Virus genome (UHGV): UHGV-0126067
Reading direction: 5' to 3' (one strand)
Source: a virus
Length of the DNA: 10,175 nt
Shown here: positions 6,821 to 10,175 of the stretch, piece by piece
Position numbering within the stretch: position 1 is the first letter of the stretch
Layout of the letters: each line of letters begins with the position of its first letter
The notes under the pieces: model-generated
Told to the model about the DNA's origin: nothing
The model's database searches: none
Seen by the model: only the letters and a program-made list of their open reading frames with translations
Program-made: the position numbers and the translations under genes

Positions 6821-7078
6821 CTACTTCGTTTTTGCTTCCGCTCTTTTACGGCGGCGCTCTTCTTTCTTCTCGGCGTTTGCCATGTCCATGAATGCCTGCA
6901 TGATCGAGTTCCTCATCATGTAACTGACAAAGTGATGATTGACGCAGCCGTTGAGACGGAGTTGCTCGCCAAACTGATCAACCGAGGCCAGCACTTGCAT
7001 CATGTCCTTCTCGCCTTTCATGAACTCTGAGAAGTCGCGCCCTGCTCTGGAGGCGCATTCGATTACGCGATTACTCAT
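6821..7078 (-). CDS. Hypothetical 85-aa protein with basic C-terminal tail, translationally coupled to the upstream KilA-N ORF
   Basis: ATG 7078-7076 overlaps the TGA stop of the KilA-N ORF (ATGA). C-terminus is EKKEERRRKRAEAKTK. No family recognised. Confidence 0.5.
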   Translation of the reverse strand: MSNRVIECASRAGRDFSEFMKGEKDMMQVLASVDQFGEQLRLNGCVNHHFVSYMMRNSIMQAFMDMANAEKKEERRRKRAEAKTK

Positions 7079-7572
7079 CCCGGCAGCCCTGGGATCGTAA
7101 TCTGCAGCTGGTTAGCAAGGGTGTTAATCTCAGCGACCAATACAGGCTTCGTATAACGCCATGCAGCAAGTCCTTGTCCGCAGAAGCTCGCCATGTCCTT
7201 CTTCTGGTCAAACTCATGGCACTTCATGTTGAGCTGCGCACTTAAGCTGTTGCGATGCTGAAGCTCTCCGGTGAAGTAGTCATCGAGGACCTTATAGGCT
7301 GCGTACTTGAACCCGGGGTTTAGCCATGCCGCATAATCGTATGCAACAAACTTCCCGCCATAGGTTCCGCCGTGTACGCCGCGGGCAGTGAAAACCACAG
7401 ATTCGTGGTTTTTCTCCAGCTCGGCCAGGAACTCTTTGGTCTGCTTGTTTCGCAGATAATGGTAAGGCGATTCAGCATCACTTTTGCCACTGGCTTTCCA
7501 CATATCGGTGAGGCAGATCATGCCGTCTTCCCCGACACGGATTGGTTGATTGAAGAGGGTTAATGATTTCAT
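7075..7572 (-). CDS. KilA-N domain protein (165 aa)
   Basis: From ATG 7572 the N-terminus MKSLTLFNQPIRVGEDGMICLTDMWKASGK... fits the KilA-N pattern found in phage antirepressor/Bro-type proteins. AAGG lies about 11 nt upstream. The ORF-track start at 7626 is a TTG with no better support. Confidence 0.7.
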   Translation of the reverse strand: MKSLTLFNQPIRVGEDGMICLTDMWKASGKSDAESPYHYLRNKQTKEFLAELEKNHESVVFTARGVHGGTYGGKFVAYDYAAWLNPGFKYAAYKVLDDYFTGELQHRNSLSAQLNMKCHEFDQKKDMASFCGQGLAAWRYTKPVLVAEINTLANQLQITIPGLPG

Positions 7573-7719
7573 TTCGCTGATACCTTTTGGTGGTTGAGCC
7601 TGTTCTCGTAGATACGGGCAGCCCAAGAGCGGTCAGCGTTACCACTGCCCTATCTCAAGCTCTACCCCGAAAGGCTCTTGGTTGATATGCGCACGAGAAT
7701 GCGCGGGTTTACTGCGGGC

Positions 7720-7745
7720 ATAAAAAAGCCCCGCTATTGCGAGGC
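7720..7745 (-). terminator. Rho-independent terminator-like hairpin overlapping the Rz1 stop codon
   Basis: Minus strand reads GCCTCGC-AATA-GCGGGGC (7-bp stem with one G.U) followed by TTTTTTAT. Confidence 0.5.
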
Positions 7746-8057
7746 TCGTGATGATTCGATTTTCCTGATTGCCGCCTTATCCAGATTGCACTGCCCTAGC
7801 GCCGTATAGAGCTGAGCGTTCAACTCCAGACTTGCCTGCCACGTGAACGGAACCGCCATTCCGGGGATCGGCGTGTCTGCTGTCAGGTCAGCGCTTATCG
7901 GCACCACTGGGGATGGAACGTAAACTGTCTGCGTATTCCCGCAAGCTGTCAGCAGCGGCAGAAGGAACAAGCTGGTTAGCACACGGATCGCCTTCAAGCG
8001 CCTGCCTGATGTAGACAATGCGCGTCTCGCCTTTTTTGGCCAGTTCGTTCTTTGCAT
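7734..8057 (-). CDS. Rz1: Rz1-like o-spanin lipoprotein, overlapping the 3' half of Rz in another frame and extending past its stop
   Basis: Lipobox LLTAC-G preceded by a hydrophobic stretch (VLTSLFLLPLL). The mature part is proline-rich (VYVPSPVVPISADLTADTPIPGMAVP) and has no Asp at +2. Start is uncertain: ATG 8057 gives a long n-region; an internal TTG at 7997, preceded by AGGCAGG, gives a textbook signal peptide MKAIRVLTSLFLLPLLTAC. Confidence 0.65.
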   Translation of the reverse strand: MQRTNWPKKARRALSTSGRRLKAIRVLTSLFLLPLLTACGNTQTVYVPSPVVPISADLTADTPIPGMAVPFTWQASLELNAQLYTALGQCNLDKAAIRKIESSRASQ

Positions 8058-8274
8058 TCTGGGTAGCCTGTGAGATGTCGCGGATGAGGTTCATCGTGGT
8101 GATCACGTTTCTGGTGATCGCCTCCGATGTGTCTGCCCTGACCGTCGCCTTATCGCGCTGGTCTTTGTAGGTGATGGCGTTGTCGCGGTAGTGGTTTACG
8201 AATAAAACCAGCACGCCGATTAACGCCAGCACCAGCAACTGTAGCCAGTAACGCTTAACCAGCGCGCCAATCAC
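7888..8274 (-). CDS. Rz: Rz-like i-spanin (128 aa) with N-terminal transmembrane segment
   Basis: N-terminal TMD (WLQLLVLALIGVLVLFV) followed by VNHYRDNAITYKDQRDK, which closely matches my recollection of lambda Rz (VNHYRDNAITYKAQRDK). GTG start at 8274 overlaps the endolysin TGA stop (GTGA). Confidence 0.8.
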   Translation of the reverse strand: MIGALVKRYWLQLLVLALIGVLVLFVNHYRDNAITYKDQRDKATVRADTSEAITRNVITTMNLIRDISQATQNAKNELAKKGETRIVYIRQALEGDPCANQLVPSAAADSLREYADSLRSIPSGADKR

Positions 8275-8711
8275 GACAGGAACAGAGCGCGCTCCGCCTC
8301 ACGCCGACGGGTCAGCCCATTCAGGACCTTGCCACCTGCTTTATTCCAGCGCAGGAACTCATCGGCTGCGCCAGCGTAATCACCGGCGTTGAGTTTTCGC
8401 AGGAGAGTCGATGTCGATAAAGATCGGGCTCCGAGGTTATAGGTGAACGACACCAGGGCGTCGAATTGCCCCTGAGTCAGACCAACTTTAACCAGGCGAG
8501 ACACGTCGCTTTCGTAGCTGACAAGTCCGGTCTTCAACAGGCGCTCTGCCGTTTCCTGATTAATTGTCATACCGGCACGGATCGGTTTACCGTCGACAGG
8601 CTGAGTCCAGCCATAGCCAATCGTCCACACTCCGACGCTGTCCTGGTACGCGGTAAGCTTGCAGCCTTCGAACTCTTTGATCAGGGCAATGCCTTTATCA
8701 CTGGTTTGCAT
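8271..8711 (-). CDS. Endolysin, T4-lysozyme-type muramidase (P22 gp19-like)
   Basis: 146 aa. Catalytic E/D/T spacing of T4-type lysozymes (EFEGCKLTAYQDSVGVWTIGYG). C-terminus RRREAERALFLS resembles the P22 gp19 C-terminus as I recall it. Follows the holin with a 14-nt overlap. Confidence 0.9.
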   Translation of the reverse strand: MQTSDKGIALIKEFEGCKLTAYQDSVGVWTIGYGWTQPVDGKPIRAGMTINQETAERLLKTGLVSYESDVSRLVKVGLTQGQFDALVSFTYNLGARSLSTSTLLRKLNAGDYAGAADEFLRWNKAGGKVLNGLTRRREAERALFLS

Positions 8712-9015
8712 TCTTCATCCCCGTCAGACGTTCCCAGAAATAGGTCAGAGCCACGGAGCCCATCGCCCCGCTAATGCCTGACGTAACCAGAATCATGTAA
8801 AGGCTCAGCCCACTTTCAACGCTGATCAGTCCACCAATGAGACCGGTAAAGCCGGACACTGCAATTTGTGCCAGCGCATTAATCCAGCTCCAGGTGGCTT
8901 TGTTCTGCTTAACGTCAATAAGGTATCGGACCAGGCCGCCCCAGCATGACAGAGCAAGGACAATCAGCCATGACACTCCGGCAATGCTTTCTTTATCTTG
9001 CATACGTTTAGCCAT
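8698..9015 (-). CDS. Holin, class I (three predicted TMDs), possible dual-start holin/antiholin
   Basis: 105 aa with three hydrophobic segments (SIAGVSWLIVLALSCWGGLV; WSWINALAQIAVSGFTGLIGGLI; LSLYMILVTSGISGAMGSVALTYF) and a charged C-terminal tail. N-terminus is M-A-K-R-M. Strong SD GGAGGTGA sits immediately upstream of ATG 9015. First gene of the lysis cassette. Confidence 0.8.
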   Translation of the reverse strand: MAKRMQDKESIAGVSWLIVLALSCWGGLVRYLIDVKQNKATWSWINALAQIAVSGFTGLIGGLISVESGLSLYMILVTSGISGAMGSVALTYFWERLTGMKNANQ

Positions 9016-9137
9016 ATCACCTCCGAAAGAACGGGGTGCTGTTTGTAGTAAGGGATCAGGCCCTCGGGACGATTTAACAAGAAGGCATGTCGATGATGGT
9101 TCCCGGGACCTTAATATTTACCTCAAAGAGGCATATT

Positions 9138-9734
9138 TTAATTTTGGCAGCGTGGTTGGCTCACTTTGAGAGACTCGATCTTCTTGATAAGCCCTCTGTG
9201 GAGCTGTGGATGCAACTGATCGCAGAGACTCTTATAGCCATGCGCAAGACTCATTTTTTCATTGAACCAAGCGAGATGGGCAAGGTATGGGTCTTCGAAC
9301 ATACCTAAATGCTTGTTCTTACCATTAACCTTTATATCGGCCTGAAATTTTGTTGAGCCTTTTTTTAGGCAAACGCCAATGGGATAATCACCCCTCCGAG
9401 CACCCCTTGAGGTAACAAAGCTATTGAGCGCCTGCGGGATAAAGATGCATGTTTTACTGGAATAAACTTTGTTACCGGGGAAAAGGAGATCCTTATCAAG
9501 CTCACACCCAGGAATGTATTTCGCGTCGTAAAACTTTTTAAATTCGCTAAAAAGATGCCACTCTTCATCAACAACACATCCTTCATAGCTAGGCCTGTAA
9601 CAGACCCCCTCCCCATAACATCTCTTAAGCATCCCATGCCAAACTCTATATGCTCTTATTTTCTTCCCATCCACAAAAACAGGATGCACATCTAACTTTC
9701 CAACTCCGAAAATAAGACTTTCATTTGATTTCAT
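9138..9734 (-). CDS. Accessory (moron-type) protein, 198 aa, with AP2-like C-terminal signature; function unknown
   Basis: ATG at 9734 (MKSNESLIFGVGKLDVHPVF...) with AAAGG upstream; the ORF-track start at 9821 is a TTG inside an inverted repeat. GC is visibly lower than in flanking genes. C-terminal segment GVCLKKGSTKFQADIKVNGKNKHLGMFEDPYLAHLAWF fits an AP2-type pattern. N-terminal domain is Cys/Trp-rich (WHGMLKRCY...CVVDEEWHLFSEF) and unassigned. Confidence 0.65.
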   Translation of the reverse strand: MKSNESLIFGVGKLDVHPVFVDGKKIRAYRVWHGMLKRCYGEGVCYRPSYEGCVVDEEWHLFSEFKKFYDAKYIPGCELDKDLLFPGNKVYSSKTCIFIPQALNSFVTSRGARRGDYPIGVCLKKGSTKFQADIKVNGKNKHLGMFEDPYLAHLAWFNEKMSLAHGYKSLCDQLHPQLHRGLIKKIESLKVSQPRCQN

Positions 9735-9750
9735 GGTTGCGTTTACCTTT

Positions 9751-9837
9751 CTTTGAAATGAACCTTTGCCGCAATGGAAATCAGCCCGTCGAGGCTCGCC
9801 AGCACTAACTGACTTCCTCAAAGGCTCATTTCAAAGG
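9751..9837. repeat. 18-19 bp inverted repeat (arms 9751-9768 and 9819-9837) in the leader of the accessory ORF
   Basis: Plus-strand arm ctttgaaatgaacctttg against the reverse complement of caaaggctcatttcaaagg: one DNA mismatch, which is a G.U pair in the minus-strand RNA. A 50-nt spacer holds a small inner hairpin (AGCC-TCGACG-GGCT). Confidence 0.75.
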
Positions 9838-9877
9838 GTGTGGTTCGACGTGGTTAGAGGCGCATTGCGGTGCGCTG

Positions 9878-9904
9878 AAATAAAAAAGCCAGCGACAGGC
9901 TGGC
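9878..9904 (-). terminator. Rho-independent terminator
   Basis: Minus strand reads GCCAGC-CTGTC-GCTGGC (perfect 6-bp stem, 5-nt loop) followed by TTTTTTATTT. Confidence 0.7.
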
Positions 9905-10120
9905 AATGTGAGGGTAAGGCAATGTCGGCTCTCTGGCCGAAGGGTCCCAGGTAGTGGGTTTAGTTTGTGGTGGCCGGCGCTGCTATCCGGCATTCACGGC
10001 TATCGCTTTACGACGCCATCAGGACATTCACCACAACGAGGATCGCTTTGCCGTGCCAGGGAAATGTACCTGGTCTCACCGGGATGCCGTCACATACTCA
10101 AAGCGATTTCCGTTATGCAG

Positions 10121-10153
10121 AAATGAAAAAGCCACCGGCGTTAACCAGTGGCT
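10121..10153 (-). terminator. Rho-independent terminator, candidate late-operon tR'-like terminator
   Basis: Minus strand reads AGCCACTGG-TTAACG-CCGGTGGCT (9-bp stem with one G.U) followed by TTTTTCATTT. Confidence 0.65.
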
Positions 10154-10175
10154 CTAAATTATTGGTGATGGCTCA

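Follow-up and report, generated by a model that had tools for sequence, protein, structure and literature searches.

The 10,175-nucleotide (nt) stretch of the virus genome UHGV-0126067 analyzed here (hereafter the window, i.e., the whole stretch at its full length) represents a piece of a P22-like (Lederbergvirus-type) phage or prophage, the genes of which lie on the minus strand. Immediately upstream of an accessory open reading frame (ORF), the window harbors a long inverted repeat, which is helix P2 of a conserved non-coding 5′ leader RNA of ~150 nt encoded on the minus strand at 9885–9730. This leader is a member of a large family residing in lambdoid and P22-like phages of Enterobacterales, where it precedes many unrelated accessory genes. 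From right to left, the window comprises non-coding late-leader sequence with two terminator-like hairpins, the accessory ORF of 198 amino acids (aa), the holin gene (9015–8698), lysozyme, Rz/Rz1, a KilA-N/ORF11CD3 gene, small and large terminase, portal, and scaffold. In the 5′ to 3′ direction, the leader region is ordered as a terminator-like hairpin, a GC hairpin (P1), a C/A-rich linker, an interrupted hairpin composed of P2 and P3, the Shine–Dalgarno (SD) sequence, and the ATG at 9734. Its elements, along with the support for each, e.g., the minimum free energy (MFE) fold, are as follows (subtype A is the branch of the family to which this copy belongs):

9904–9888, U-tract at 9887–9882, minus strand: terminator-like hairpin GCCAGC-CUGUC-GCUGGC, directly 5′ of the leader (terminator scan)
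9875–9860, minus strand: hairpin P1, GCGCA-CCGCAA-UGCGC (MFE fold and covariation)
9870–9865, minus strand: P1 loop CCGCAA, the 5′ strand of the pseudoknot (complementary to UUGCGG)
9859–9837, minus strand: C/A-rich single-stranded linker with a near-invariant CGAACC (alignment and MFE fold)
9836–9819, minus strand: 5′ arm of P2, CUUUGAAAUGAGCCUUUG in the RNA, the right arm of the repeat (repeat search, fold, and covariation)
9817–9807, minus strand: 5′ arm of P3, GGAAGUCAGUU (fold and covariation)
9806–9787, minus strand: apical region of P3, highly conserved in subtype A, variable or absent in other subtypes
9786–9776, minus strand: 3′ arm of P3, GGCUGAUUUCC (fold and covariation)
9774–9769, minus strand: 3′-side internal loop UUGCGG, the 3′ strand of the pseudoknot (complementarity to the P1 loop)
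9768–9751, minus strand: 3′ arm of P2, CAAAGGUUCAUUUCAAAG in the RNA, the left arm of the repeat (repeat search, fold, and covariation)
9750–9745, minus strand: SD region AAAGGU, preceding ATG 9734–9732
9734–9138, minus strand: accessory ORF, 198 aa, starting at ATG 9734–9732

On the plus strand, the arms of the repeat, 9751–9768 (CTTTGAAATGAACCTTTG) and 9819–9836 (CAAAGGCTCATTTCAAAG), are 18 nt long, complementary at 17 of 18 positions (94%), and separated by a spacer of 50 nt. The lone non-Watson–Crick position is A·C on this strand and G·U in the minus-strand RNA. An earlier note on this DNA had described these arms and the single G·U correctly; the 19th pair which it added (9750/9837) is not formed, being A·C in the minus-strand RNA. 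Its claim that the stem is longer than expected by chance held as well: with one mismatch or fewer and a spacer of up to 100 nt, this is the sole 18-nt inverted repeat in the window, and 100 dinucleotide-preserving shuffles produced no such repeat. Folding of the minus-strand repeat and covariation analysis across homologous loci, both called for in that note, yielded a stable fold (−41.9 kcal/mol for the RNA 9745–9842 vs. −25.8 ± 3.5 in shuffles; z = −4.6) and strong covariation, and the search for the repeat elsewhere in this and related genomes, likewise proposed there, retrieved a second, diverged copy in the window and many homologues in phages. The inner stem, the upstream hairpin, the pseudoknot, the second copy, and the family-wide distribution had been overlooked.

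The inner stem (P3) of 11 base pairs (bp) is stacked atop the 18-bp P2, the two being separated by an internal loop of 1 nt by 7 nt; the end of the stem lies 16 nt from ATG 9734. The terminal CC of the linker (9838–9837) is able to pair with the GG of the SD. A role of P2 as an intrinsic terminator or attenuator was ruled out, since P2 is followed by AAAGGUAAACG and not by a U-tract; the terminator scan flagged only the upstream hairpin 9904–9888 and a 5-bp apical mini-hairpin, and not P2. The upstream hairpin is itself a regular companion of the leader: a terminator-like hairpin with a T-tract is located within ~80 nt upstream of P1 in 165 of 175 unique members of the family (94%) vs. 18% of random segments.

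Approximately 150 nt around the repeat display 85–93% identity to unrelated phages, and the similarity ends at the start codon. The first homologues differ in the type of the gene which follows:

Phage CharmingMan: leader homologue, downstream ORF of the HNH_3+AP2 type
Phage RothC: leader homologue, downstream ORF of the HNH_3+AP2 type
Hafnia phage Meifeng: leader homologue, downstream ORF of the Rha type

A more sensitive search revealed the subtype-A element in 75 phage records. In P22, it lies at 21,278–21,382 before ORF201/rha, with 86.9% identity to the window leader by blastn and 158 bits with the covariance model of subtype A (R1); other carriers include ES18 (before gp79 rha), the Stx phages 1717 and 2851 (before a KilA-N gene), and HK544. 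Subtype A was also found in 954 of 5,426 complete E. coli genomes (~18%) and was never annotated as RNA.

The structure was examined in 77 unique 149-nt versions of subtype A, collected by an exact-pattern scan of IMG/VR. RNAalifold and pair counting in this set supported three helices, P1, P2, and P3: 96.9% of the cells are paired vs. less than 48% when the partners are slid by one to three columns, and compensatory changes are present at six pairs. Thus, a pair of P1 is CG in 66 sequences and UA in nine. In P2, one pair appears as UA (70), GC (5), or CG (1), along with several A-U to G·U changes and one invariant G·U. In P3, the pair 77–110 is GU in 50, AU in 22, and GC in five sequences, and the pair 78–109 is UA in 48, CG in 22, and UG in seven.

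The same alignment tells RNA from DNA. One-sided changes give 349 G·U cells vs. 51 A·C cells in the sense RNA, the sense strand is paired in 96.9% of the cells vs. 87.9% for the antisense strand, and the model R1 scores the window at 9732–9882 with 162 bits in the sense and 22 bits in the antisense orientation. Changes which retain pairing only as G·U, together with the score on the sense strand, identify the element as an RNA read in the same direction as the late operon and speak against a DNA palindrome. The earlier note had offered two DNA-level explanations, a two-half-site operator and a scar of insertion (a terminal inverted repeat or a homing site), and neither survived: changes in one arm keep the pairing only as G·U in the sense RNA, the leader mostly stands before Rha and KilA-N genes, which do not encode endonucleases, its orientation is constant, and the conservation extends past the arms into P1, the linker, P3, and the SD. 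The palindrome, operator, terminal repeat, and homing scar were accordingly rejected on account of the strand-asymmetric pairing, the R1 scores, and the constant orientation to the ORF. Taken more broadly, an element acting at the level of DNA, whether as a palindromic operator, as the scar of a transposon or of homing, or merely as a conserved linker joining phage modules by recombination, draws some support from the homology which ends exactly at the start codon, so that the leader does act as a mosaic joint, and from the HNH-type ORF downstream in the window and in two other phages. Nevertheless, substitutions preserve RNA pairing by G·U on one strand or by compensatory changes with constant orientation, most copies precede non-nuclease genes, neither a second inverted copy nor a target duplication was seen, and a 50-bp spacing is untypical of a dyad operator, which makes this explanation extremely improbable.

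The P1 loop is complementary to the 3′-side internal loop between P3 and P2, and the two segments pair to form a pseudoknot. In the window, the pairs are CCGCAA/UUGCGG in copy 1 and UUCUCG/CGAGAA in the second copy; elsewhere in the family, UCGCAU/AUGCGA, UCUCAC/GUGAGA, UCGCAC/GUGCGA, CGCUC/GAGCG, CGCCC/GGGCG, UUCAC/GUGAA, UCGUAC/GUACGA, UCCACC/GGUGGA, GCGCCC/GGGCGC, and others were encountered, i.e., at least 12 distinct variants in which the segments are replaced wholesale. In an alignment-free test, perfect complementarity of at least 5 nt was found in 117 of 132 unique elements (controls: 9% with the internal loops of other variants, 4% after shuffling of the internal loops). Subtype A taken alone has its five pseudoknot pairs formed in 95.8% of the cells, with two compensatory C-G to U-A cases. 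On contigs carrying two or more copies of the leader, the pseudoknot sequences differ in seven of eight cases, a small sample.

The pseudoknot is accompanied by unpaired yet conserved nucleotides in the linker (CGAACC or AUCAA) and at the junction, which invites the suggestion that the leader is a riboswitch-like or protein-binding sensor RNA. Its pseudoknotted core would then recognize a metabolite, an ion, a host protein (e.g., of the IHF/HU type), or a late protein of the phage and, on binding, toggle between SD-masked and SD-open states. A common external signal is plausible, given one leader before unrelated genes; the duplicated GAGCC/GAACC could pair alternatively with GGCUC/GGUUC; and Rha is reportedly harmful in IHF-deficient hosts. 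On the other hand, some subtypes have a variable apical region or lack it, the alternative helix (5–7 bp vs. ~18 bp for P2) is on present data indistinguishable from chance or shared ancestry, no riboswitch of Rfam matched the leader, and no ligand or protein was identified. Hence, sensing is regarded as distinctly improbable.

The second copy in the window came to light with the model R1, which gave weaker matches on the same contigs before other accessory genes, including the window at 7567–7711 (16 bits). A second pattern scan provided 91 unique elements of another subtype (B), and the model R2, built solely from 17 subtype-B sequences, scored 76 bits (E 3e-15) at 7568–7714 and 46.6 bits (E 5.5e-9) at 9730–9885. 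Since the model of each subtype finds the other subtype and both window copies, the two copies and the two subtypes constitute one family. The MFE folds of both copies agree with the family architecture (P1, a long interrupted hairpin, and SD/ATG at the 3′ end). The features of copy 2 are as follows:

7747–7721, minus strand: terminator-like hairpin and U-tract, after Rz/Rz1 and 5′ of copy 2 (terminator scan)
7714–7568, minus strand: second, diverged leader copy before the KilA-N/ORF11CD3 gene (R1, R2, and MFE fold)
7704–7689, minus strand: P1′, with the loop UUCUCG at 7699–7694 (MFE fold)
7675–7670, minus strand: GCCUUU, paired with the SD AAAGGU at 7587–7582, the SD being fully paired
7608–7603, minus strand: CGAGAA, the pseudoknot partner
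7572, minus strand: downstream start ATG

Across the subtypes (46 sequences, in an alignment which is fitted to the structure of the model), 91.2% of the cells are paired vs. 76.6% in column shuffles and 36–50% when the partners are slid; compensatory changes occur at 22 of the 29 nested pairs, and doubly changed cells number 194 vs. 61 ± 6 in shuffles, none of the 500 shuffles reaching that value.

Subtype B is present in 960 of 5,426 E. coli genomes (~18%), in HK620 (before hkbK), HK639, CUS-3, many Stx2a phages, and Klebsiella phages. The commonest position of the leader is just after Rz/Rz1; in the window (copy 1), RothC, and CharmingMan, it is situated between the Q/late-leader region and the holin gene instead. 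In all 227 instances detected, an ATG lies 3–15 nt past an AAGG-type SD, and there are no orphan copies devoid of a downstream ORF; the orientation relative to this ORF is constant across the family. The downstream proteins fall into 17 clusters, several of them without a Pfam match, including KilA-N+ORF11CD3, Rha+ORF11CD3, P22_AR_N+ORF11CD3, ANT/KilAC, HNH_3(+AP2), T5orf172/MUG113, and TerB-like proteins. The taxonomic range is only roughly known because the scan of genome contigs used a short pattern of 15 bases (16 positions, one degenerate), too short for 596 gigabases, so that 107 of 120 matches were due to chance; the 13 genuine matches all came from Enterobacterales, except one in a “Nanosynbacter” metagenome-assembled genome (MAG). 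In this Candidatus Nanosynbacter sp. MAG (Patescibacteria), a true subtype-A leader occupies a 4-kb contig, which is probably a binning contaminant.

Several observations concern the manner in which the leader is combined with genes. The nucleotide similarity between phages stops exactly at the ATG after the leader in all aligned loci. As the similarity ends there, the leader constitutes a recurrent mosaic joint for swaps of accessory genes. Phage contigs with two or three copies, located before different accessory genes, are numerous (L001, L002, L025, L031, L039, L046, L047, L079, L097, and others); in CharmingMan, one copy precedes the HNH gene and another a TerB-like “tellurite resistance” gene.

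The breadth of the downstream genes also bears on the coding potential of the leader itself. The start TTG 9821 in the ORF track of the window sits inside the 5′ arm of P2, and the earlier note had advised distrust of it. This advice was sound: the same leader stands before unrelated ORFs, and the extensions of ORF callers through it run in different frames across phages, the TTG frame of the window and Meifeng differing from the GTG frame of P22 ORF201, which disqualifies TTG 9821 as a start. The different frames of the homologues and the compensatory variation in the stems thus ruled out a protein-coding leader. In the Rha protein of Meifeng, the PHROG match starts only past the leader-encoded residues. 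Public annotations of Rha overrun ~23–27 codons into the non-coding leader in different frames, e.g., in Meifeng (L003:1951–2583) and in P22 ORF201 (L005:2549–3154, AF217253). Likewise, the start TTG 7626 of the KilA-N gene in the ORF track (7075–7626, minus strand) overruns leader copy 2; translation almost certainly begins at ATG 7572 instead (MKSL…, 165 aa), matching homologues such as L008:8664–9158.

How the leader might act on the ribosome-binding site differs between the subtypes. In subtype B and in copy 2 of the window, CCUUU at the base of the long hairpin is paired with the SD AAAGG; the pairs next to this contact covary between AU and GC in 25–26 of 80 sequences, and the probability of the SD being unpaired is 0.22 vs. 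0.49 with shuffled upstream sequence. In subtype A, a CAAAG segment stands in the place of the SD within the helix, and possible pairing of the SD is confined to its GG, the partner being the invariant CC located 5′ of P2. Sequestration of the SD is thus clear in subtype B but only partial, and not convincing, in subtype A, to which the window leader belongs; as a universal feature it is not upheld.

A fragment of the P22 homologue has already been sequenced. P22F, an RNA of 89 nt (P22 21,301–21,389) with “no known function”, was reported from small-RNA sequencing of P22 infection and validated by reverse transcription PCR (Naaz et al., Noncoding RNA 2026;12:21; PMC13397905). The library was ligation-based, P22F was abundant in infected cells and vesicles, and the authors loosely compared such RNAs with IsrK of Gifsy-1 (PMC13397905). 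P22F overlaps the leader homologue at P22 21,278–21,382 and matches the P22 row of the leader alignment. Its 5′ end lies six nt into the 5′ arm of P2 (CUUUGG|AAUGGG), and its 3′ end is nine nt past the stem, 5 nt before the rha ATG in the published sequence (6 according to the paper). Like the window leader, P22F covers P2 (minus the first six nt of the 5′ arm), P3, the internal loop, and the SD, and it ends before the ATG of rha/ORF201; its equivalent in the window would be 9830 to about 9743. The two differ in location: the P22 copy follows Rz and precedes rha, and copy 1 of the window lies between the late leader and holin, before the HNH-type ORF. The P22 study gives a fragment defined by read coverage and a generic hairpin drawing, without P1, the pseudoknot, covariation, the family, the downstream genes, or its distribution. 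In the literature, it is the only description found which includes the leader sequence, and a description in a subscription journal is possible. Because of the ligation-based library, P22F is expected to carry a 5′-phosphate and a 3′-OH; such ends would fit endonuclease processing followed by exonuclease stalling, not self-cleavage.

A long imperfect hairpin with an internal loop, placed before the SD in a polycistronic transcript, is characteristic of the lambda N leader, the lambda cIII mRNA, and the R1.1-type sites of T7, where processing or binding by RNase III alters translation. The window leader is similar in being a long interrupted hairpin directly upstream of the SD; in contrast to it, those leaders lack a pseudoknot between a hairpin loop and an internal loop, and Lambda_thermo of Rfam did not match the window. 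RNase III sites comprise approximately two turns or more of double-stranded RNA, often with an internal loop, and P2 (18 bp) with P3 (11 bp) presents a duplex of this kind. The leader could serve as a punctuation mark of RNA processing and stability: the P2+P3 duplex would be a site of RNase III or another endonuclease which splits the lysis/leader transcript from the accessory mRNA, the structured remnant protecting the flanking RNA against exonucleases, and the effect would mainly fall on mRNA half-life rather than on ribosome access. The interrupted ~30-bp duplex with an asymmetric internal loop, resembling the RNase III sites of T7 and lambda, speaks for this, as do the discrete 89-nt P22F with ligation-competent ends (the 5′ end in the P2 arm, the 3′ end 9 nt past the stem, typical of 3′-exonuclease stalling) and the SD of subtype A, which is not measurably occluded. 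At the same time, a canonical double cut by RNase III would place the 3′ end ~14 nt upstream of that observed for P22F, and the constant SD and ATG, the CCUUU:AAAGG contact of subtype B, and the pseudoknot would be left unexplained. Overall, this explanation is considered rather unlikely.

The abundance of P22F in infected cells and vesicles (PMC13397905) would also suit action in trans. In this case, the fragment would pair, as IsrK does, with further copies of the leader or with mRNAs of the host or phage, and the loop sequences would be intermolecular address codes instead of forming a pseudoknot within one molecule. In Gifsy-1, alternative structures of IsrK masking the ribosome-binding site make the long transcript translationally inactive, and a short isoform activates in trans (Hershko-Shalev et al. 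2016; PMC4825925). The likeness consists in a prophage RNA with a terminator just upstream of an operon encoding an antirepressor, and this precedent of a prophage leader favors a trans role (PMC4825925). So do the complementary segments, swapped wholesale between variants like specificity determinants, and the different variants on copies of the same contig in seven of eight cases. Still, both complementary segments always reside in one molecule with fixed geometry, so that intramolecular pairing is kinetically favored; there are no orphan copies among the 227 instances; no trans target was identified; and the Rfam scan showed no similarity of the leader to IsrK. These points render a trans-acting leader very unlikely. 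IsrK differs further in having its own promoter, a terminator inside the regulatory RNA, and trans activation, and a pseudoknot is not described for it. It is a functional analogue of the leader, not a relative.

The scan in question (Rfam 15, cmscan, whole window, both strands, E ≤ 1) gave no match at 9730–9885 or 7568–7714; the sole match was a chance-level snoRNA at 8679–8722 (21 bits vs. a gathering score of 36). The library presumably includes IsrK, C4, Lambda_thermo, Pistol, and riboswitches, and the lack of homology to IsrK is to be read with this assumption. A topological parallel is the Pistol ribozyme, often found in phage contexts, where the loop of a 5′ hairpin forms a pseudoknot of 5–6 bp with the internal loop of a downstream hairpin, as the P1 loop of the leader does. 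The leader differs from it by the location of the partner on the 3′ strand of the internal loop, by stems three to four times longer, and by the lack of an Rfam match; moreover, self-cleavage leaves a 5′-OH and a cyclic phosphate, and P22F was captured by ligation. Pseudoknots in the 5′ untranslated region (UTR) near the ribosome-binding site, like that of the leader, control the initiation of translation in the T4 gene 32 leader, in E. coli rpsO/S15, and in the alpha operon (S4), which are autoregulated by the protein they precede. For the leader, autoregulation is unlikely since the downstream proteins belong to many unrelated families.

Taken together, we are inclined, with little more than even confidence, to view the leader as a cis-acting element controlling the translation and/or processing of accessory genes in the late operon. 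It would be transcribed with the phage late operon from the minus strand of the window, and the upstream terminator would limit its transcription to that modified by Q. The compact pseudoknotted fold would hold the ribosome-binding region within or next to the basal part of a very stable helix, and the synthesis of potentially toxic DNA-binding or nuclease proteins would thus stay low or conditional. An endonuclease cutting within P2 would leave a stable fragment of ~90 nt, seen in P22 as P22F; the cut might either free the SD, causing activation as it does for the lambda N leader, or mark the mRNA for decay. The earlier note had proposed an RNA element for translation or stability. The RNA part of this proposal is firmly upheld by a conserved sense-strand helix with compensatory changes which always adjoins an SD and an ATG; the control part represents the best inference.

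Several points weigh against this cis-control proposal. The link between the leader fold and translation is one that we infer. In nested folds of subtype A, the probability of the SD being unpaired is 0.42 vs. 0.44 with shuffled upstream sequence, i.e., there is no extra occlusion; the energy calculations as a whole deal with nested folds and leave the pseudoknot out. The CC:GG contact of subtype A spans a 3-nt bulge, its third pair is present in only half of the members, and an A·C mismatch occurs within P2 in about half of them. The ends of P22F are possibly decay or library artefacts, and its 3′ end, lying before the ATG, would inactivate the mRNA instead of activating it. Finally, the pseudoknot and the strongly conserved single-stranded nucleotides exceed the needs of simple SD masking, which hints at an effector (a protein, a ligand, or an RNase).

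The surroundings of the leader in the window complete the picture. The 198-aa accessory ORF matched PHROG 953, annotated as “HNH endonuclease”, at 1e-70; it had no match in Pfam (including HNH_3 and AP2) and no relative in the PDB by sequence search, and its alignment with the HNH_3+AP2 proteins of CharmingMan and RothC is limited to the C-terminal third (the AP2-like region). The protein is possibly related to homing endonucleases, as a degenerate member or as one that only binds DNA. Upstream, ~220 nt of non-coding sequence (9905–10127, minus strand) lie between the terminator-like hairpins 10155–10128 and 9904–9888. This region is modestly structured (z = −2.6) and may be a late-leader RNA; the segment 9868–10038 is 91–95% identical to intergenic DNA of Enterobacter phage CobraSix and several E. 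coli genomes. A 35-nt direct repeat (9860–9894 and 10103–10137, 74% identical) suggests a duplicated unit of a terminator and a P1-like hairpin. A sigma-70 promoter scan of 7000–10175 returned two weak sites only, none near the leader, in a number not above that in shuffles, and an internal promoter for the leader is therefore not supported. ARAGORN found no tRNA or tmRNA genes in the window.

Structured 5′ leaders are familiar as a kind; this family, its pseudoknot, and its breadth are undescribed in Rfam or in the accessible literature beyond P22F. A pseudoknotted RNA of ~150 nt has apparently been overlooked in such well-studied phages as P22, HK620, ES18, and the Stx phages, where it has neither an Rfam entry nor a RefSeq annotation. 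Its recognition corrects the start calls of the window (TTG 9821 and TTG 7626), of P22 ORF201, and of the Rha gene of Meifeng, and the natural variants of the pseudoknot, at least 12 in number, make up a ready set of compensatory mutants. The products of the Rha, KilA-N, Ant, and HNH types can be toxic or inactivate repressors, which makes the leader a plausible control point during prophage induction. A bolder suggestion, which we put forward only tentatively and deem unlikely, is that the leader founds a regulatory RNA class of its own and is functionally active, either as a sensor (riboswitch-like or protein-binding) or as a dual cis/trans regulator with a copy-specific pseudoknot “address”. 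If so, the active leader would time or gate antirepressor-like proteins and nucleases across lambdoid prophages, including the Stx phages and P22, and could influence prophage cross-induction or host takeover.

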